DNA of 64,000 nt from assembly GCA_964016885.1 (NCBI GenBank), contig OZ024747.1:58094001-58158000 (forward strand), read 5' to 3'. The notes beneath the pieces are model-generated. The model did no database searches and had not been told where the DNA came from. It saw only the letters and a list, made by a program, of their open reading frames with translations. A program made the translations under genes and the position numbers. Shown here one piece after another: positions 5,953 through 62,604 of the stretch. Positions within the stretch are counted from its first letter, which is position 1. The number at the start of each line of letters is the position of its first letter. This DNA is from Eledone cirrhosa. Taxonomy: Eukaryota.

Positions 5953-6648
5953 CACACATGTTAGCATTTATATAAATGAATATTAAAGCCCTACTTATTC
6001 AGTACACCTTTCTCTCAGCTGTCAACCACATACGGATATACATATGTGTATATATATATATAATCCTTATCGTGCCCTTTTCGTATTTTAGTTTTCACAT
6101 GTATTATATAGATATATACAAGTTTGACCATCAGGCAGATAAAGTTGACTATATAAATAATCAATTAAAACGGAGCAAGTTTGGAATGTAGGTTTGAAGA
6201 AAAAATAGATAAATGTTTACAAACGTTTTTCTCCCGCTCTCTCTCTCTCTCTATATATATATGTATATATATATAGGAAAAAGTATGACCCCGCGGGCAG
6301 AGCTCAAGCCGTTTCGACGGCTATTTCTGGACTAAATTAGAACTTTTAGCCTGGTGAATAAATAGCCGAACTTTTCAAGGGCGTACTTCCTTATATGGGA
6401 ATATTGTAGTTGTCAAGAGGATTGGTTAAAATTTGTTGTAAACACAAATAAGTCTATCATGGCATTTGGTGGGAGGTAGGAGTGGGTAAAAACTTGCCTG
6501 TAGAACAATAGGGGAGTGAGTGGAGCGGTCAAGCGTTGAAAGTGATATGTATACAGCAGATTATAAGGATAGTGTATGAAGTGGAGGAGGGAGGTTATAG
6601 AATAGGTAAATCGAATGAGAGTAGGAGACAATAAAAGATAATTGAAGT

Positions 6649-6745
6649 ACCCCCTTGAAAAGTTCGGCTATTTATTCACCAGGCTAAACATTCTAATTTA
6701 GTCCAGAAATAGCCGTCGAAACAGCTTGAGCTCTGTCGTCGGCGT
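6649..6745 (+). ncRNA. type I hammerhead ribozyme in 5' pLTR (U3-A8 core variant; stems partly mutated)
   Basis: CCCC-TTGAAAA-(long stem II CGGCTATTT/AAATAGCCG)-GAAA-stem III-GTC-GGCGT. Confidence 0.65.
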
Positions 6746-6930
6746 CATACGTTTTCCCATTTACCACTCTACTACCCTAAGTATTGAGTACTCTGGTGCA
6801 TTATGGTCCATCTGGTTCCTTACCACAATTGCTTTGTTATTTAGCTCCTATCTCTGTAGTAGAGCACTTTCCGACTCTACCACGCCATATCCTGACTTTT
6901 CCAATCAGCTCAAGTTTCTTCAACCGCACG

Positions 6931-9060
6931 ATGCAAAAACACAACATCGACTTCTCCACCAAGAACATCCCAGTTCCACCGAGAAAACTTTACCTTCGGA
7001 TGCTCACGCAAAAAATCGACCCTTTTGCGAAAAGAATAAGATGGAGAACCTTTTTCTACTATGGATACCGCGACAATCAGGATTTCGACACCAAGGAGAG
7101 ATTCGGATTCAATACCTACAAATCTCCCCCTCCGAACCCTATGCTCTCACCATTCAAGAACGACCTTTTTTGCACCTGGTCAAGAACATTCAATTCAAAC
7201 CCAGACACAACAGATTTCTACAACAACTCCGTAGCAAAATAACAGAGTATGAAAACACCAACGACATCATGGTGCACTCGGACAAAACAGGAAACCTCTA
7301 TTTCGTCAACCCTGACAGATACCACACACTGATCAGGAGCAGCCTAAACTCCACCTATAAAAAGTCTAACCATTCAATTATCGAGGACATAAATCGAGAT
7401 GGACAACAAATTACCTACAGCCTCGGGGTCGCCGACCGCACTGAACCCCAAGACCCATGGACTCCCTACTTCACACTGAAGGACCACAAATCCGACTTCG
7501 ACCGCAGACCATCCATTAGGCATATAAACCCAACGAAGTCGGACATAGGGAGAATCAATAAAAAGATCCTAGACCGAGTTATAGCACAAGTTAAGCTAAA
7601 CGTGTGACTTAGCCTATGGGTCAGCACTCAGGAAGTAATCTCATGGTTCAGGAATATGGCGGACAAACGAGACACATAATTCATCCAGTTTGACATACAG
7701 AGTTACTATGCATCTATTACCTTACCCCTCCTTACGGCCGCCTTGGACTTTGCCGAAACACTCACACCCATCACTGACCAGGAAAGAAATATCATTCTCC
7801 ACGCCAGGAAGAGAGTCCTACTTTTCGACAACTCTAAGTGGATAAAGAGAGCTCCCGACTCCCCCTTCGACGTCAGTATGGGCGCGACGGATCCGGCGGA
7901 GGTCACAGATCTTATAGGATTATTCCTACTATTTAAACTCACCGAAATGTTTCCTGCATTCGCCGGTGGATTGTACCGGGATGATGGGCTCCTCACCCTC
8001 AAAGGGAACAACCCCAGTAGTACAGACCGGGTCCGTAAACAACTAATCAACTTCTTCCGAGACTTGGGATTTAAAATCACACTACAAACGTCCCTAACCC
8101 GAGTCAATTTCCTGGACGTTACCTTTAACCTCCAAAATGCTCTGTACTACCCATACAGGAAACCAAACGACAACATGCACTACATCCACAGCCGCTCTAA
8201 CCATCCTAGAAACATCACCAATAACCTGGTTGAAAACATCTCCCTCCGCATATCTCGTTTGTCCGCTAATAAGCTGATTTTCGACGAACACGCGACTCAT
8301 TACAACCAAGCCCTCGGGCGGAGTGGTTTCCGGGAGGAAATATCCTTTTATCCAGCTTCCCTTAGCGGATCCAGCAGGCGACACCGTCGCTCATGCAACG
8401 TAACGTAGTTCAATCTTCCCCATAATGCCGAGGTGGCAACACCTATCAGGAAAATCTTCTTTAGACTCCTCGAAAAACATTTCCCACTACAACACCGCTA
8501 CCACAACATAATCAACAAAAACACCATGAAACTCTCCTACAGCACCACACCTAACTTCGCACGAAAAATCATCTCCTCAAACATCAACAAAAATCAATAC
8601 CTATGGAAGAAATAACCTAGACATCAGTGGAGAGCCGACCAGGAGGTGTATCTGCCCTGATAGATCTACGTGCCCTCTCAACAACAAATGCCGAAAACGT
8701 AACGTGATCTACCAGTGCAATGTGAGGACGGACACCTCCAACAAAGCTTATATAGGATTAACCGCGTGTGACTTCAAGACCCGGCTCTACCAACACCGAC
8801 ATACTTTCCGAAGCCCGGTTCGGCGACATGCCACTACACTCTCGGGCCACATCTGGGACCTCCAAGATAATAATATAACCTACAATCTCACTTGGAGCTT
8901 ACTGTCCAAAGCTAACTCTTACACGGGAGGACGTCGTCCGTGTAACCTATGCTCGGAGGTAACATTACAAATGTTGTTTTCGAAGGACCAACTCCTAAAC
9001 AAGAAAGACGAACTGGTAACCGCATGCAAACACAGATTGCGTAGGACTTACTCAATAACG
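6931..9060 (+). pseudogene. disrupted PLE polyprotein (reverse transcriptase + C-terminal GIY-YIG endonuclease)
   Basis: ATG 6931 MQKHNIDFSTKNIPVP..RIRWRTFF; RT motifs DKTGN, FIQFDI..YYASI, FDVSMGA.D.AEV..LIG, GLYRDDGL, NFLDVTF, YRKPN..SNHP; GIY-YIG region VIYQC..AYIGLT..FKTRLYQH..CNLC..LN..CKH. Frameshifts near 7170 and 8610; stops at 7605, ~7678 and 8406. Confidence 0.9.
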
Positions 9061-9749
9061 ACCCGGGTGGGTAGACAAGGGCTGATACCCTCCTACTTGC
9101 CGAATAAGTTAGGGGAAACCCCAGCTTACTTAGGTAGATGTATCTCTTTTCTTTTCCTCTTTGTCTTCTTCTTCCCCGTCTCATCCTATCACTTCCTTCC
9201 ACCCCTATTTTCTTCCACGTCTGCTTTTCCCTTTCGCCTACCCCGATGCAGCCCATCGGGCCTCTGTAGCATCAGTTCCCCCACCCCTGTAATTTTAAGA
9301 TAGAATTGGCCGAATACGTTTTACTGACTACGTATAGCAGACGTGTTAAACCCCTTTAATTCTGTATCAGTTCTGGTACTACCCAATTTCTACAAGTTTT
9401 TTTCTATTATCAACTTATTAACCTGTAATTGTAAGATAGCATTGTGATTTTTTTTCATTTCTCACTATCTAATTTTTTTTTTTTCTTCTTTCTATTATCT
9501 TTTATTGCCTCCTACTCTCATTCGATTTACCTATTCTATAACCTCCCTCCTCCACTTCATACACTACCCTTAGAATCTGCTATATACATATCACATTCAA
9601 CGCTTGACCGCTCCACTCACTCCCCTATTGTTCTACAGGCAAGTTCCGCCACACCTACCTCCCACCAAATACTATGATAGACTTATTTGTGTTTACAACA
9701 CATTTTAACCAATCCTCTTGACAACTACAATCTTCCCATATAAAGAAGT

Positions 9750-9846
9750 ACCCCCTTGAAAAGTTCGGCTATTTATTCACCAGGCTAAAAATTCTAATTT
9801 AGTCCAGAAATAGCCGTCGAAACGGCTTGAGCTCTGCCGTTGGGGT
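9750..9846 (+). ncRNA. type I hammerhead ribozyme in 3' pLTR (U3-A8 core variant)
   Basis: Stem I CCCC/GGGG; core TTGAAAA 9756-9762; stem II CGGCTATTT/AAATAGCCG with nested GGCTAAA/TTTAGTC; GAAA 9819-9822; stem III ACGGC/GCCGT; predicted cleavage after GUU at 9841. Confidence 0.75.
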
Positions 9847-10167
9847 CATACTTTTTCCTATTTACCACTCTACTACCCTAAGTATTGAGTACTCTGGTGC
9901 ATTATGGTCCATCTGGTTCCTTACCACAATTCCTTTGTTATATATATATATATATATATATGAATTTCAAAAACAGTTCTGCGTTTTCAGCAACCGGTAA
10001 AACAGTTTAAATACTCCAGTTAATATTATTATTATTACTACTATGATATATATATATATGATATATTTGTTGTTTTGCAATGTTTTTGATATGAAATCGT
10101 GTATTGAAACAAATATTTTTATATTTGGGGTGGGTCATATTGTTATAATATTGCTAGAAATGATAAT

Positions 10168-26796: not shown

Positions 26797-27036
<240 letters not shown>

Positions 27037-27084
27037 GACGTAAAATAAGAAAATTATAAAAATTAAATTACTTACTAAAGTTTC

Positions 27085-27165
27085 ACTCCAACTAATTAAT
27101 TTCTGAAAGGGAATAAACATGGTTTCCGATGGAAAGCACGGAGAAACCTTTCGTCCTCAGGAAGT
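27085..27165 (-). ncRNA. type I hammerhead ribozyme with expanded stem II
   Basis: Minus strand: ACTTC CTGAGGA cGAAAGG..CCTTTCa GAAA TTAATTAG TT GGAGT. Stem I is ACUUC/GGAGU and stem II is GAAAGG/CCUUUC. Confidence 0.7.
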
Positions 27166-27596
27166 TCGTTCTCAGCTAAGTTACCAGGCGATGCGTGGAC
27201 ACAGGGAACTTATACAAAAATAATTCAGTGGATGGAAAAAAGCAAGCGTGGACTAAATTTTAAGACATTGAAAAAATCACTGCCTACTTGGACGGTGGCA
27301 AATTCAAAAGAATCAATCACGTGACATCGAGGTTAATCAGTGAGGAGTGAGGTGTTAAAAAGACAGTGGCCGAGCCATTACTATGAACTATAGTAGCAGT
27401 TTTGGCAAATTTTTGCTCAACAAAATAATTTGGAGTTAATTATAAAGAATTAGTATATCTACCAACATATATATACAAGTGCATACCTATGCTAGCAAAT
27501 ATATAGGTTTGTCTTAGTAACTTTGTGGTTCAATGCAATTATATGAAAGACGTAAAATAAGAAAATTATAAAAATTAACTTACTTACTAAAATTTC

Positions 27597-27678
27597 ACTC
27601 CAACTAATTAGTTTCTGAAAGGGAATAAACATGGTTTCCGAATGGAAAGCACGGAGAAACCTTTTGTCATCAGGAAGT
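27597..27678 (-). ncRNA. type I hammerhead ribozyme with expanded stem II (second copy)
   Basis: Minus strand: ACTTC CTGATGA CAAAAGG..CCTTTCA GAAA CTAATTAG TT GGAGT, with palindromic stem III ACTAATTAGT. Confidence 0.72.
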
Positions 27679-27841
27679 TCGTTCTCAGCTAAGTTATAAT
27701 TTTCTTATTTTACGTCTTTCATATAATTGTTCTGCATCCCCTTGCATTGAACCACAAAGTTACTAAGACAAACATATATATTTGCTAACATAGGTATGCA
27801 TCTGTATATATATGTTGGTAGGTATACTAATTCTTTTTATA

Positions 27842-32384: not shown

Positions 32385-32785
32385 TATAATATATATATAT
32401 ATAATTATATATATATATATATATGCATATATATGTATATATATATACATATATATATAAAAGTATATATGTATATATATATGTATATATATATACATAT
32501 ATATATGTATATATATATGTATATATATATATATATATACATATATATATGTATATATATATGTATATATATAAATATGTATATATATATGTATATATAT
32601 ATACATATATATATATGTATATATGTATATGTATGTATATTTATATACATATATATTTATATATAGGTATATATATATATATATATGAAGTAATTCCGTC
32701 GGAATTCTGATGATTGAAAGCAAAATTTGTATGCTTTCAAGAAACCACTGGTAAATGAAATAATTGCCTTATGTTGTTTATTACA

Positions 32786-32825
<40 letters not shown>

Positions 32826-32906
32826 GAGTAATAATATAAAATTTGAAGACTAAAATTAAAAGAGAGAATACATATATATGTATATATATGTATATACATA
32901 TGTATG

Positions 32907-32938
<32 letters not shown>

Positions 32939-32939
32939 T

Positions 32940-34075
32940 AAATTAATATTTGATGAACATTTACATGTTATAGTTGCAATTGACTAATAAGATCGCTAGA
33001 GTGAAAAATCTTAATTCAACAACATAAGGTCTGCCTGTACGATCTAGAAAATAATAAATCAATACTCACAGACTCATATGGGCAAAAAGCCTTGGTAACT
33101 AGAGACGTTTAAAATTCAAAATACAAACTTTTTCCGCAGATCGGTCAGAACTTCAAACTTCAAACATGTTTCACAAAGGATGGTATAATAGTAAAATAAT
33201 TAACTAATTAGCAGTGAGTTAATCAACTTTTTCTGTGTTTATCAATAGGCACCCAGATAAAAATAAAATAACTCAACTTTAGAGAAATATCTTTTTGCCC
33301 ATATGAGTCTGTGAGTATTGATTTATTATTTTCTAGATCGTACAGGCAGACCTTATGTTGTTGAATTAAGATTTTTCACTCTAGCGATCTTATTAGTCAA
33401 TTGCAACTATAACATGTAAATGTTTATCAAATATTAATTTATACTGCTCAGAAGCAATTCCTAGAGCTGAAATGATTGTAAATGACCTCTCTGAGTCTAA
33501 ACTCTAAGCTATTTATCACTGCTCCCCAAGGTGAGCTGAATTTTGTAATCCCATACAAACGGCTGTTATTTCTAGCACTATGTGTGGGACGTTAGAGGAC
33601 TGGAATAAGCCGTGTGCAAAACCTCGTGTATTTTCGCTACGCTAACCAGACCTTAGATATTTCTCTAAGGTTGAGTTATTTTATTTTTATCTGGGTGCCT
33701 ATTGATAAACACAGAAAAAGTTGATTAACTCACTGCTAATTAGTTAATTATTTTACTATTATACCATCCTTTGTGAAACATGTTTGAAGTTTGAAGTTCT
33801 GACTGATCTGCGGAAAAAGTTTGTATTTTGAATTTTAAACGTGTCTAGGTACCAAGGCTTTTTGCCCATATGAGTCTGTGAGTATTGATTTATTATTTTC
33901 TAGATCGTACAGGCAGACCTTATGTTGTTGAATTAAGATTTTTCACTCTAGCGATCTTATTAGTCAATTGCAACTATAACATGTAAATGTTCATCAAATA
34001 TTACTTTATACTGCTCAGAAGCAATTCCTAGAGCTGAAATGATTGTAAATGACCTCTCTGAGTCTAAACTCTAAG

Positions 34076-34079
<4 letters not shown>
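32940..34079 (+). mobile_element. non-coding element with PLE architecture (inverted arm + 567-bp-spaced direct repeats)
   Basis: 32940-33291 is the reverse complement of ~33656-34005; 33292-33512 repeats almost identically at 33859-34079; flanked by (TA)n. Confidence 0.8.
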
Positions 34080-34121
<42 letters not shown>

Positions 34122-34125
<4 letters not shown>

Positions 34126-34425
34126 GGAAAACATTAAAATTCTATTTTTCACTCTTAGTACGGCTGATACTTAAATATAAGTATGTATACGTACATACAT
34201 ATATGTATACAGTAGTATGTATATACATACATACTTGCACCCGTATATGGTATCGATGGTTGCTGAACACTGTAAGGTTACTAATTCGGGTTGTTTGTTT
34301 GCAAACAAACCGAGCATTATAGTAAATGTTCGGTAAACCCAGAAGTACATATATATATATGTCTGCATGTATGTTTGTATATACATAGTACTGTACATAT
34401 ATGTATGTACGTATAAATACTTATA
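34122..34425 (-). mobile_element. diverged palindromic relic of the 467-bp retrozyme family
   Basis: TTTCACTCTTAGTACGGCTGATACTTAAATATAAGTATGTATACGTACATACATATATGTATACAGTAG resembles 60881-60965; inverted arms ~34170-34225 and ~34345-34423. Confidence 0.6.
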
Positions 34426-36912: not shown

Positions 36913-37534
36913 ATCTTTGGCTACTGCTATCTCAAGGAATTTACCTTCTAATACCAGTACAAGAACTCTCCCTCCCACAGTCCACAAAGGTCGTCAAATC
37001 CTACTCAAACCATCATCTACACCTCTCACAACACACACACCCACATACCCACCCACTCGAAACCCCATCATTTGCCGCTACTCTCTACGCTATAGAATAT
37101 GTACGGATAGTGGCTGCAAATTCACCCATTTATCTAGGACAAAACGATCTATCCCCACAAACAGCCACCACCATAATACATACTCTAATTTAACACCAAC
37201 ACAACCACCAATAGCTCAAACAAGGAATCCACAAATCTGCCGCTTTTCCCTGCGAGACAGATTGTGTTTAGACCGGGATTGTCCCTTTACCCATCTCCCG
37301 GGGACCCGTCGGACAAATGAAAATAAAATTAAAAATAAAAGCAAAAACAAAAACCATAACCTACATAAAAATAACCACTACCACAGTCACCAACAGTCTT
37401 CTAAACAGGAAAATTCTTCCTCTTTTTTAGCCATAATAAATCATGCAAAAGAACTGGAAAAAAACATTCGAGCTATCACCCAGCACCACCCTCCACTATC
37501 ACCCCACTGCACAAACTCCCATTGCTGCCATTAA
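36342..37534 (+). CDS. LINE ORF1 (Myb/SANT-like N-terminus, polyQ, poly-Thr, two CCCH-type zinc fingers), split by a -1 frame change at ~36785-36880
   Basis: ATG 36342 MANQQKSKQNWSDNEIDILINTW and Q-rich tract; the second frame has CRYSLRYRICTDSGCKFTH and CRFSLRDRLCLDRDCPFTH (C-x8-C-x4-C-x3-H). Confidence 0.7.
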
Positions 37535-40533
37535 CAAACAAACAAATTAACAACACACCAAAACAATTAAAACCATCCACTCTCGCCTCTACATTTTTGC
37601 TTAACGCCCAAGGCATCAGCCCTTCCACCAATACTCAAAAATGGAAGATCAAATTCCTGGAGGACTGGATTGATGTCCATCCAAACCACATCCCTTTCTT
37701 CGTCCTCACTGAAACCCATCTCAGTAACCTCGACTTGGAAGCCGAGGTGAAAGTGAAAAATTTCAAAGCCATCCGTGCTGATCGCGCTGGCAGAAGAAAG
37801 GGCGGGACTGTCATTTATGTCCATAATTCTTTCTCAACAGAGGCTATGAACATATTCACTAATGGATACTGTGAAGCAGTCACTGTATTCAGTCAAACCA
37901 GCAACCTAATAGTAGTTGGGCTCTATAGGCCACCCCAAACGCCTGTACCATGCTTCAAGGAATGCCTCAACAGCATAAAGTGTTTTATCCAAGAGTGTCA
38001 CCCTGACAACATCTTAATGATGGGGGACTTCAACCTCCCCGGAGTTGACTGGTCCACAAACAGCCTGCCACCAGGTTCTTCTGCCTCAACCTCTGACAGG
38101 GAAGTAGTGGAATCGCTTCTTGACTTCATGGATGATTTCTTCCTATCCCAACTGGTGCTCGAACCAACGAGGTGCCACAAAAACGTCCTAGACTTAATTT
38201 TCAGCAATCACACTGACAATATCCACAATATTGCAGTGGAGAAAACTCTACTCTCTGATCATGACATGGTTCTCTGTGATCTGAGATTCCACCGTCCAAT
38301 ATACAAACCCAATGTCATCTCTCCTGTCCATCCGTTTGACGCTATGGATTTCCACAATGCAAACTGGGAAGCGATCAGTCATGATCTTGCACATGTCGAC
38401 TGGTCCTTCACGCACACTCATACACCCACTAACATCAAAAAGTCCTGGCAGACATTTGTGGACACTGTTACAAACATATGTGCAAAACACACCCCATTAA
38501 GAACTATAAACAAATCTAAGAGCAGAATCCCTAGAAATAGAAAAACGCTCATCAGAAAAATTAAGAGAACGAACAAAAAAATCAACAAGCTGAAATACTG
38601 TCAGCAGCAACACATCAACTTGACTGCCATTTCATCACTAGAGATTAAAAAACATAACCTCCAAAACAACATAATGTCCCTCATCAACAATCAGAGAAGA
38701 GCTGAAGAGGCCTGGGCTATTGAGAAGATCAAACTCAATCCCAAAGTGTTCTTTTCATTTGCAAAAAAACACAAAATCACTGGCTCTACTGTTGGCCCTC
38801 TAATTGATGAAAATGGCACTCTTCAAGACAATGCTAAAACCAAGGGTGAGATACTGCAGAAACAATACTGCTCTGTTTTCAACAATCCTGATATGGCCGA
38901 TCTGAGCTGTATCGGCGATGTTACTCCCCATTACACCTTATCGGACATAACGTTTGGCGCCCCTGATGTCTTAGCGGCAATAAAGGAAATCAAGCATAAT
39001 TCAGCAGTAGGTCCCGATATGTTCCCTGCTTGTGTCTTGAAGGCGTGTCAACACCAACTTGCATCTGCTCTTGCCAATCTGTGGCGGAACTCACTGGATG
39101 CTGGATATGTGCCAGAAAACCTTCTATCCCAGTCTGTTGTCCCAGTTTTCAAAAAGGGAAACAAATCCCTTGCCGTGAATTACCGTCCAATCTCACTCAC
39201 CTCTCATATCATTAAGGTATTTGAGAGAGTGGTGAGATCGCGAATGACCCACTTCCTTGAGAGTAACAATATGCTGAACTCCAACCAGCATGGATTCCGT
39301 AATGGAAGGGATTGCCTGACGCAGCTACTGCATCACTTTGATGACATTTTGAGAGCCTTGGGAGAGGGTTCCAACACTGATGTTATCTACCTTGATTTCA
39401 GCAATGCCTTTGATCATAACATTCTACTGAGAAAGCTGTCCAATATTGGTGTCACTGGAAAGCTGCTGCAGTGGATCAAGAGCTTCCTGTCAAATAGAAC
39501 CCAACATGTTGTAGTTGAAGGAGTCAAATCCAGCCCAGCCAAAGTCAGTAGTGGGGTCCCACAAGGCACTGTGTTGGGCCCACTTCTCTTCATCATCTAT
39601 TTTAATGACATCACTGACATCATCAAACACAGCAACATTAAAATTTTCGCTGATGATTCCAAGCTCCAAAAGGTCATCAATGGCGTGGATGACCGGATAA
39701 GCCTTCAGTCAGACCTACTGGCTGTTACCCAATGGGCGGAAAAGAACAACATGTTACTGAACGAAGACAAATTCGAACTGATCCACTTTGGAAAAGAGGA
39801 TGCTCTGAAACTCCCGTACTCCCTTCCCTCCGGGGAAACTCTCGTGGCATCTAACAACATCAGAGACTTGGGAGTAACCGTGGACAGCAACATAAGCTGG
39901 GCCACGCATATAAGCAGCAAAGTTGACATGGCCCGCAGAATGTGTTCCTGGATCCTCAGAACCTTCCAGTCGAGAGATTCCCACACCATTATCCTTCTCT
40001 TCTCTACTTTTGCCCGACCACACCTTGAATACTGTTGTCCACTGTGGTCTCCCCACACGAAACAAAGTATCATGAAACTTGAAGCTCCTCAAAGGGCAAT
40101 CACGAAAAAGATAGATGGCATGTCAGACCTTGACTACTGGGGTCGACTAGAAAACCTGAAACTTTACTCACTCCAACGTCGCCGTGAGCGTTATATTATC
40201 TGCATGATGTGGAAAATGTTCCATCATCACTGCCCAAATGATGTTGGCATCGCCTTCAAGATACACCCAAGGCTTGGGCCCCGTGCTATCCGTCCCATTC
40301 AAAAATCTAAATCGCAACTCATAACAACAATACGGCACAATTATTTCACCTCAATCGGCCCTGCTCTCTTCAACATCACACCAGGACATGTCAAAACAGA
40401 AACTGACCACACAAAATTCAAGAAGTCTTTGGACAAATTCCTCCAAGTAATCCCGGACAAACCACCCACACCCGGATATGTCTCCGCAAACAGTAATTCT
40501 CTTCTCGAATATGCCATGGTGCCCAAATCCTGA
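37405..40533 (+). CDS. LINE ORF2: AP endonuclease + reverse transcriptase (stop-to-stop; no ATG before the APE motifs)
   Basis: APE motifs LNAQG, LTETHL, GLYRPP, MGDFN, LDLIF, SDH; RT motifs [40 protein letters not shown]; C-terminal [10 protein letters not shown] typical of the CR1/L2 group. Uninterrupted for more than 1000 codons. Confidence 0.93.
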
Positions 40534-60822: not shown

Positions 60823-61382
60823 TAGACTTTATATATATATATATATATATAAATTGAAACAAAATGAAAACGAAATTTCATTTCTCACTCTTAGTATGGC
60901 ACTTACTTAAATGTAAGTATGCATGTATACGTACATACATATATGTATACAGACGTACAGTAGCATGCACATATATATATATATATACATATGCATACAG
61001 GTACACATACATATATGCACGTATCAGTTTAGCGTATCTTACAAACGAACAAAGCGACGTTAGCGCCGCTAAACTGATACGTGCATATATGTATGTGTAC
61101 CTGTATGCATATGTATATATATATGTATATATATATATATATGTGCATGCTACTGTACGTCTGTATACATATATGTATGTACGTATACATGCATACTTAC
61201 ATTTAAGTAAGTGCCATACTAAGAGTGAGAAATGAAATTTCGTTTTCATTTTGTTTCAATTTATCGTTTTCGGTATGCCTGACCGATTTAACTCACTCAA
61301 TATGCAAATTAGGCTGCTCAGCCGTTAATTTTCATAAGGAAAGTATATACTTTCGAACGTTCAACTATCTGGCAGATGGGTA

Positions 61383-61427
61383 AACGGTGCTGATGATAGC
61401 TAACAAGCTTGAAACTAGTACATCGTT
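61383..61427 (+). ncRNA. minimal type I hammerhead ribozyme
   Basis: AACGGTG CTGATGA T-AGC-TAACAA-GCT-T GAAA CTAG TA CATCGTT: intact core, 7-bp stem I, palindromic stem III ACTAGT, predicted cleavage after GUA at 61420. Confidence 0.9.
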
Positions 61428-61849
61428 CCTGTGTCAGTGTTGAACAAAAAAGGTGACGTGGTTGCCTTAACACCGTATGGCATAAATTCAGGCTGTTCAG
61501 TTTGTTTACAAACGAACAAAGCGACGTTAGCGCCGCTAAACTGATACGTGCATATATGTATGTGTACCTGTATGCATATGTATATATATATGTATATATA
61601 TATATATATGTGCATGCTACTGTACGTCTGTATACATATATGTATGTACGTATACATGCATACTTACATTTAAGTAAGTGCCATACTAAGAGTGAGAAAT
61701 GAAATTTCGTTTTCATTTTGTTTCAATTTATCGTTTTCGGTATGCCTGACCGATTTAACTCACTCAATATGCAAATTAGGCTGCTCAGCCGTTAATTTTC
61801 ATAAGGAAAGTATATACTTTCGAACGTTCAACTATCTGGCAGATGGGTA

Positions 61850-61894
61850 AACGGTGCTGATGATAGCTAACAAGCTTGAAACTAGTACATCGTT
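61850..61894 (+). ncRNA. minimal type I hammerhead ribozyme (second copy)
   Basis: Identical to 61383-61427; predicted cleavage after 61887. Confidence 0.9.
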
Positions 61895-62604
61895 CCTGTG
61901 TCAGTGTTGAACAAAAAAGGTGACGTGGTTGCCTTAACACCGTATGGCATAAATTCAGGCTGTTCAGTTTGTTTACAAACGAACAAAGCGACGTTAGCGC
62001 CGCTAAACTGATACGTGCATATATGTATGTGTACCTGTATGCATATGTATATATATATGTATATATATATATATATGTGCATGCTACTGTACGTCTGTAT
62101 ACATATATGTATGTACGTATACATGCATACTTACATATATATATATATATATACATGTACTGACACAAGAGCAAGAATGAGGGGCTCATTCTACTGACAC
62201 GGCTTTACAAATGAGGCCATTGCATAATTGCAAATGAGTCGAATATTATTATTTATATTCGAAAAACTCAGATTACATTTTTATATATATATATATATGC
62301 ATGTTTGTATGTATGTGAGTGTGTGTGTGTATATATATATATGGTGTATTACACTTTACAATAAATGTGATTCTTAACATATGTAAGATACACATTTATT
62401 TTAATGTAATGCATATTAATATTACTCTCAACGTCTAGCCCAGTCCTGTGCTGTTTAATTTAATGTGTCGTCTGGTTTACATGTAATCGTTCATATATGT
62501 ATATGTATATATAAATATGTGTATGTGTGTGTGTATGTGTATACATACATCCATATATAAGTATATCACATATATGAATGAACATATGTATGTATATATA
62601 TATT

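Follow-up and report, generated by a model that had tools for sequence, protein, structure and literature searches.

A non-LTR retrozyme of Eledone cirrhosa with a long-stemmed type I hammerhead motif of non-canonical core

The insertion at 32937-34083 of the window (the whole stretch of 64,000 nucleotides of Eledone cirrhosa DNA analysed here) is, by the sequence tests applied, a non-LTR retrozyme. Each of its 567-nt units has one predicted type I hammerhead motif, located at 33694-33853 on the plus strand, and by the look of this motif, long-stemmed and of the monomer type with a non-canonical core, the element departs from known retrozymes. It is very probable that we are dealing with a non-coding tandem retroelement whose variant hammerhead likely cuts tandem transcripts and whose units are likely copied into (TA)n sites by the reverse transcriptase of a Penelope-like element (PLE). 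An earlier note on this DNA had reported no hammerhead core on either strand and had suggested a different processing signal, possibly an undescribed ribozyme. The first statement was overturned by a relaxed descriptor and an alignment of relatives, and the second is dispensable since a hammerhead motif is already contained in the unit and no separate processing signal is needed.

Layout, copies and ends of the element

The insertion comprises the following features:

32937..34083, no strand: entire insertion, bounded by (TA)n tracts and made up of an inverted arm and 1.4 units in sense orientation
32937..33292, minus strand: inverted, 5'-truncated arm; carries a second hammerhead copy with two changes, which fails the descriptor
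33291..33857, plus strand: one unit of 567 nt with a GC content of 34% and no stop-free frame beyond 47 codons
33858..34083, plus strand: partial second unit (direct repeat), stops at copy end 2
33443 (also 34010), plus strand: copy end 1, putative first reverse-transcription start
33516 (also 34083), plus strand: copy end 2, putative second start

The layout described in the earlier note (inverted arm, direct repeats 567 bp apart, TA flanks, near-identical copies) was recovered in every part by self-comparison and genome search. The arm (32937-33292) is 98.6% identical to 33655-34010 in inverted orientation, the direct repeats 33291-33516 and 33858-34083 are 98.7% identical at an offset of 567 nt, and (TA)n tracts lie on both sides. 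The element exists as hundreds of young copies of a non-coding 567-nt unit. A 181-nt query against the species' own 3.0-Gb assembly yielded 505 first-look candidates, from which 40 copies were scored, all of them 98-100% identical, and one end motif has 344 exact matches in the genome.

Segments of 49 family loci had their 3' ends at end 1 or end 2 in 72 of 85 cases, and the 73 nt between the two ends correspond to the 'tail' of PLEs. According to PMC8557442, PLEs are recognized by a pair of neighbouring ends, incomplete tandems, an inverted arm that is truncated, and insertion into microsatellites. The element has an inverted 5' arm, a partial tandem, two fixed 3' ends and a microsatellite target, which agrees with the PLE-type architecture proposed before. 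At least six of the 49 family loci contain two or more hammerhead cores on the same strand; the window copy, with only one hammerhead in sense orientation, would be unable to set a unit free by itself. At 32700-32870 and 34124-34420, the element is bordered by ends of three or more further families that target (TA)n, an insertion nest in one microsatellite.

The type I hammerhead motif

The following parts were assigned to the motif, all on the plus strand:

33694..33701, plus strand: stem I, 5' strand, 8 bp with 33846..33853
33702..33708, plus strand: first core box UUGAUAA, U3-A8 covariant
33709..33774, plus strand: long stem-loop II, 66 nt (32-92 nt across families), three core-proximal pairs conserved
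33775..33778, plus strand: second core box GAAA
33778..33844, plus strand: stem III, 20 bp with six G.U and no mismatch, opened by A15.1-U16.1
33843..33845, plus strand: GUC triplet, predicted cleavage after 33845
33846..33853, plus strand: stem I, 3' strand

The first box (33702-33708) does not have the letters of the canonical CUGAnGA, and a pattern for the canonical core (CUGAnGA..GAAA) is absent from both strands of the element. The 3-8 base pair is kept as U3-A8 together with G5, A6 and A9, and the GAAA box, the A15.1-U16.1 pair (A-U in 26 of 26 alignment rows) and an NUH site are in place. There are three stems with stem I open, as well as covariation, and the non-coding, low-GC tandem unit with one type I hammerhead is that of a non-LTR retrozyme. 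The motif had been missed because of the box UUGAUAA instead of CUGAnGA and because stems II and III are about 66 nt each. The Rfam search proposed by the earlier note gave no ribozyme match for the window or for the unit, and thereby also missed the hammerhead.

A descriptor permitting the U3-A8 pair and long stems detected three of four controls, missing the decayed PLE repeat of the window. It matched the element on the plus strand only, with 31 paired positions, a value reached by none of 1000 shuffles (maximum 15; 12 shuffles with any match), and was passed by 48 of 56 regions of families A and B. A strict version was passed by only 18 of 59 units, owing to a stem III mismatch in relatives. 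The structure of lowest predicted energy for 33691-33856 is the three-way junction, with z -3.2 as against z +1.5 on the minus strand.

Diverged relatives provided variation that is absent from the near-identical copies. They were found in the own genome by short patterns (242 and 200 exact matches, none in the control) and are 53-69% identical to the window unit; further families were recovered later. Parts of the hammerhead were counted in 59 units of families A-E, pairing in a 26-row alignment. All parts are present in 51 of the 59 units; a hammerhead in the family is the finding by which, in its own terms, the earlier note's proposal of a new ribozyme is refuted. The triplet is GUC in 47 of the 51 complete units, and stem I is paired at 8 of 8 positions in 49 of the 50 locus rows listed. 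In the alignment, 96.2% of the cells are paired (stem I 100%, stem II 93.6%, stem III 95%), compared to 12-54% in slid controls. Stem I covaries across related families: two-sided changes occur in the 26 related rows at seven of the 31 hammerhead pairs, three of them in stem I, a total count that was reached by 58 of 500 shuffles.

Two other hammerhead candidates were discarded. A CUGA-CC-GA..GAAA match that caps stem III (33799-33822) is not conserved among relatives, its genome pattern gave three matches against one in the control and no canonical version, and the initial descriptor that yielded it missed all three positive controls. Loci with a minimal hammerhead GAAA-CAUG-U and a far upstream box turned out to be other elements without homology.

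Natural variation of the core

A degenerate pattern of stem I and core gave 1636 genome matches and one match in the control. By hand tally, the 100 matches listed of these 1636 comprise 60 with U3-A8, nine with U3.G8 and 31 with C3-G8, the latter with C4 (14) or A4 (17). The 3-8 pair is kept in all 100 matches listed although the pattern permitted C3.A8, a mismatch found in none of them. Canonical CUGAnGA occurs neither in the 59 units nor among the 100 matches listed of 1636. In a tree calculated without the core letters, C3-G8 with C4 appears in two clades, with starred branches with U3-A8 between them, the tree being midpoint-rooted and recombination being possible. U3-A8 is a known natural covariant with activity in vitro (PMC3088659; PMC4209133), and U4C is known as a slower natural hammerhead variant (PMC3088659).

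A second retrozyme family, G, has a unit of about 546-575 nt and a type I hammerhead with a 9-bp stem I and an 8-bp stem III, situated about 150 nt 3' of the 17-nt block treated below. Its core is GUGACCA, a natural G3-C8, in nine of 21 complete copies and U3-A8 in five (one branch), while none is canonical (loci L179, L189, L191, L231, L236, L247, L254, L255 and L257). A description of a natural G3-C8 or of rate data was not found in the literature searched, which lay mostly outside the subscription journals. The same holds for a prior description of the core variants and of the end hairpin in the main texts searched, where the supplements of PMC4209133 and PMC8557442 are the places that list hammerhead variants.

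A stem III of 20 bp enables monomer folding of the ribozyme, and the likely role of the non-canonical core is therefore to hold back cleavage, which would allow the circle to survive. In a rival reading, the element would be a retrozyme-derived parasite of PLEs, with the hammerhead kept as a structure, cleavage too slow to matter and uncut tandem transcripts as the templates. Besides the missing canonical core in the 100 matches listed of 1636, this is suggested by predicted folds in which the active form lies above the ground state. The active core is 3.7 kcal/mol above the predicted minimum in the window unit and 0-4.6 kcal/mol in four relatives, the consensus fold of the alignment pairs G5-A8 over the cleavage site, and the ensemble predicted for the circle assigns a probability of 0 to the three pairs of stem II next to the core, due to a shifted register that takes up G12. 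Insertion by the PLE PAc in vitro is independent of cleavage (PMC11167929), and eight of nine Xenopus retrozyme dimers remained uncleaved in vitro (10.64898/2026.07.22.740005). Nevertheless, we regard such a parasite as unlikely. The 3-8 pair is restored in three ways (U-A, U.G and C-G), and GAAA, A15.1-U16.1 and NUH are fixed across families that are 60-70% identical, a pattern difficult to account for unless catalysis is under selection. A hammerhead that likely cuts, though slowly, remains the preferred reading.

Hairpins beyond the copy ends

Two similar hairpins follow the copy ends:

33446..33467, plus strand: GCUC..GAGC hairpin 3' of end 1
33521..33536, plus strand: GCUC..GAGC hairpin 3' of end 2

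The GCUC..GAGC hairpin begins 3-5 nt past both ends, with predicted pair probabilities of 0.96-0.98. To put it into context, 44 clusters of (TA)n-joined ends, each used at least twice in the loci sampled, were inspected. A RCTC..GAGY hairpin 2-14 nt past the end was present in 14 of them, compared to one at each of four control offsets and a shuffle mean of 0.35; in the other 30 clusters the full hairpin is missing by the test used. Six of the 14 belong to the superfamily of the window element and eight lie outside it, including both ends of the PLE of the window. Within the window, the hairpin occurs at 6757-6790 and 6843-6870. The two strands agree in all 14 clusters, ACTC going with GAGT (5) and GCTC with GAGC (9). 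The purified PLE PAc uses two internal reverse-transcription starts, to which the two copy ends correspond, and requires RNA 3' of these starts for activity (PMC11167929). The RCUC..GAGY hairpin is a candidate for a reverse-transcription start signal common to PLE-type families. A description of the window element's family or of its end hairpin was not found in the literature searched, in which subscription journals were mostly out of reach.

The fold at 33549-33612 and the 17-nt block

Downstream of copy end 2, three structural features were distinguished:

33549..33589, plus strand: helix P1 (33549-57 with 33581-89), 9 bp with one G.U, covaries across families
33560..33576, plus strand: 17-nt block conserved within the loop of P1, with GYUA-UUUC-UAGC as inner hairpin
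33600..33649, plus strand: hairpin P4 (CUGG 33600-03 with CCAG 33646-49), competes with the long second helix proposed before

In this region, the earlier note had drawn two crossing helices closed by TTTTGTA/TGCAAAA and had called for a covariation check. Both helices can be drawn, but only P1 passed this check. For P1, copies were aligned by anchors because the automatic alignment misplaces this helix in family A; 70 copies were counted, three of 73 segments having no anchor and being left out, and the invariance of the 5' strands is a consequence of how they were found. Eight pairs are each held in 63-69 of the 70 copies, and pairs change between A-U, G-C and G.U, between U.G, U-A and C-G, or between U-A, U.G and C-G. 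ADAR editing might account for single G.U pairs, but the two-sided changes indicate selection on pairing. The second helix can be drawn as two 6-bp pieces (ACGGCU/AGCCGU and UUCUAG/CUGGAA) around an internal loop. Its outer part, CGGCU/AGCCG, is limited to families A and B and broken in about 40 of the 70 copies, its third and fourth pairs being held in only 30 and 27. In 63-65 of 65 copies, CUGG has its partner in a downstream YCAG rather than in the second helix. The closing helix is altered in subfamily B and absent in families C-E (by eye).

The preference for the plus strand that had been noted before is borne out by the circular unit fold (z -2.5 on the plus strand, -0.5 on the minus strand). 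By a crude stacking score, the best crossing pair beats 299 of 300 segment shuffles and all 40 unit shuffles, although the nested fold of 33530-33640 has z = -0.36. An alternative 5-bp crossing helix, CUAGC/GYUAG with 33591-33595, is held in 66-70 of 70 copies per pair with one-sided changes only, and uses the same strand as the inner hairpin. It is possible that CUAGC of the block forms a pseudoknot or a two-state switch with 33591-33595.

The suggestion that 33549-33612 is an undescribed ribozyme or a ligase beside the hammerhead appears very remote to us. It could draw on the covariation of P1, the well-kept alternative crossing helix, the missing Rfam match and the conservation of the block, which in DNA runs from another sample is conserved better than any other stretch (depth peak on the unit at 33540-33577, the loose ends belonging to a diverged family) and lies within three changes in 15 of 21 copies found via the hammerhead, the other six having junctions or other DNA upstream. 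Cleavage, on the other hand, is already predicted for the hammerhead, the alternative crossing helix lacks two-sided changes and competes for its strand with the inner hairpin, and no copy end maps to 33549-33612. Moreover, crossing pairs beat the shuffles (at most 3 of 60) in seven of eight representatives of families A-E but in none of eight from F, G, H and L182. The earlier note had found no fit to twister, pistol or HDV, and this still stands. The Rfam models for twister, pistol, hatchet and twister-sister gave no match at 33549-33612, and a search over 33280-34085 returned three matches with E 3.8-6.9, all of them snoRNA noise, though a method that also missed the hammerhead is a weak test. 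HDV-like ribozymes form a nested double pseudoknot in which P3 adjoins P1, with a catalytic C in J4/2. At 33549-33612, the 5-7 nt before the P1 3' strand are variable, the outer helix is not maintained and no conserved C box is visible (by eye), and there is no Rfam match.

The main rival to a role in RNA concerns the flagged fold and not the hammerhead. The block might act at the DNA level as a promoter or factor-binding site, or be a splice acceptor, with the surrounding helices as general structure of a circular RNA. The block sits about 40 nt 3' of copy end 2 and also in unrelated repeats; a one-letter variant has 896 exact genome matches (0 in the control), in contexts that include a distant relative, family G, a non-autonomous LTR element and nine others of 61 distinct contexts. 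Within the LTR element it is not enclosed by P1, and contexts without P1 of this kind favor a site in DNA, as do the promoters contained in terminal repeats of PLEs (PMC6765202). None of the 61 distinct contexts is an autonomous PLE. The block is missing from both autonomous PLEs examined, which also points to DNA; a pyrimidine run followed by UAG at the end of the block would suit a splice acceptor. Against a site in DNA, the commonest change of the block (C/U) leaves its pairing to G intact within the inner hairpin, and across short families that are unrelated the distance from block to end hairpin stays at 36-39 nt (by eye). It was not found within five changes in the 130 nt upstream of six distinct U2 and three correctly oriented U6 genes, the remaining seven of ten U6 rows being on the wrong strand and left out, and an snRNA-type promoter element was discarded on these grounds. 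Overall, a DNA-level site seems possible, yet distinctly less likely than a role in RNA. Rfam detected microsatellite noise only in ten block-bearing loci. The LTR-type element (L176:286-2417 and eight similar loci) has 372-bp LTRs and a primer-binding site.

PAc depends on RNA located beyond its starts, and the flagged fold occupies the corresponding place 3' of the copy ends, not that of the ribozyme. By this analogy, it is most likely part of a candidate protein-docking region rather than a catalyst.

Candidate PLE partners and mode of propagation

It is likely that the mobilising partner is a PLE, without an individual PLE being pinned down. A piece of family C directly adjoins, without any gap, the RT frame of the young intact L172-type PLE (L146:5499-5534), a family A fragment lies between the arms of this PLE (L148:4737-5026), and relatives are joined to other PLEs at L147:1896 and L239:~745. 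The gapless joins, which involve coding or UTR sequence of PLEs, suggest template switches during insertion, and all these elements crowd the same microsatellites. Significant homology of the unit to the two autonomous PLEs examined was not detected, the best match having 16 nt and E 0.32, and both of these PLEs lack the 17-nt block. A hammerhead-less partner of the Naiad type became unnecessary once the hammerhead was found.

The very young intact PLE L172 (minus strand, G000:C3:215051000-215060900) has an 813-aa ORF in a 6.47-kb tandem unit with a 4-kb microsatellite-rich UTR; 1436 candidates were obtained, and 40 of 40 scored copies were identical. [quoted passage not shown] RCTC follows both of its ends, and a possible 5' UTR intron would close a GCTC/GAGC hairpin (by eye). 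Pfam recovered no families in three PLE frames.

Further elements were noticed. The window contains a decayed PLE at 6276-9944; it has an inverted arm, its ends are at 9858 and 9944, and its type I hammerhead at about 9755-9835 is degenerate and has a long stem II. Two other retrozyme-like elements lie at 60852-62135 and 27000-27840, the former with a canonical minimal hammerhead, a palindromic loop 3 and no RCTC hairpin past its ends. An apparently intact LINE (by eye), with a 1042-aa open frame showing endonuclease and RT motifs, extends over 37405-40533. Many solitary diverged CUGAnGA..GAAACAUGUH cores with unique-looking flanks occur elsewhere in the genome (L033-L062; 85 matches, 20 in the control).

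The propagation of the retrozyme may be pictured as follows. Copies with several units would be transcribed, and the hammerhead would cut once per unit after the GUC at 33845, yielding unit-length RNA. A host ligase may then close this RNA into a circle, as happens with other retrozymes of animals (PMC7229834). A PLE RT-endonuclease would bind 3' of the ends and nick (TA)n, and cDNA started internally at either end, as for PAc (PMC11167929), would account for the 73-nt tail, tandem read-through and inverted arm.

Relation to known elements

The non-LTR retrozymes of animals (Cervera and de la Pena 2020, PMC7229834; Li et al. 2026, preprint 10.64898/2026.07.22.740005) are similar in having non-coding, low-GC tandem units with one type I hammerhead each, in their dispersal as monomers to multimers and in their likely mobilisation by PLEs. 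The unit of 567 nt compares with RNAs of 170-400 nt in PMC7229834 and units of 51-972 bp in 10.64898/2026.07.22.740005. The differences lie in the hammerhead. Non-LTR retrozymes, as characterized in these sources, have a palindromic helix III of 1-2 bp, whereas here stem III has 20 bp and stem-loop II 66 nt, and in contrast to them the superfamily of the window element has no canonical core among the sequences surveyed (59 units and the 100 matches listed of 1636).

The U3-A8 variant of the Schistosoma PLE Cercyon (PMC4209133) and core variants in PMC3088659 share the type I topology, U3-A8 and the place upstream of the 3' ends. As reported there, hammerhead variants of animal PLEs are minimal and dimer-dependent, a large helix III being reported for fungal and protist PLEs (PMC4209133; PMC3088659). 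Unlike in the animal PLE variants, long stems are here combined with U3-A8, U3.G8 or C3-G8 plus C4 or A4.

PAc, a Poseidon element of Anolis (PMC11167929), likewise has two adjacent 3' ends, AT-rich targets, an upstream hammerhead and required RNA downstream of the starts. Its starts are in an AC-rich stem-loop within the ORF and its tail has 30-40 bp (PMC11167929), while in the window element the tail measures 73 nt and an RCUC..GAGY hairpin common to several families comes after each end. Naiad, Chlamys and the non-autonomous MRC1, which are hammerhead-less (PMC8557442), also show tandem and inverted insertions at microsatellites. Unlike these, the window family has a hammerhead, and PLEs beside its copies carry a C-terminal GIY-YIG domain.

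Implications

With the hammerhead motif, the candidate new ribozyme is removed from the list. What takes its place are more than 1000 hammerhead motifs in one animal genome (1636 pattern matches) that escape Rfam and descriptors based on CUGAnGA. The core-only search described in PMC8557442 uses a spacer of 7-17 nt and a CUGANGA box, and would miss the long-stemmed UUGAUAA motif of the window element. Counts of retrozymes and lists of 'hammerhead-less' PLE types may therefore be off.

In its widest form, the interpretation would be that the RCUC..GAGY hairpin and the P1 stem-loop, switchable to a pseudoknot, constitute a general RNA module recruiting and positioning the telomerase-like RT of PLEs, comparable to what template boundary and pseudoknot are in telomerase RNA, and that these retrozymes are a class of monomer-folding hammerheads throttled by their core (U3-A8, U3.G8, C4/A4; G3-C8 in the second family) and invisible to standard descriptors. 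We put this forward tentatively and consider it doubtful as a whole. In PMC11167929, the internal start sites of PLE reverse transcription are mapped, not the signal that sets them. With a short covarying hairpin past the ends of many families and a young intact PLE in the same genome, the idea of a start signal is directly testable, and the natural series of 3-8 pairs offers a ready test of how slow the ribozyme of a retrozyme must be.
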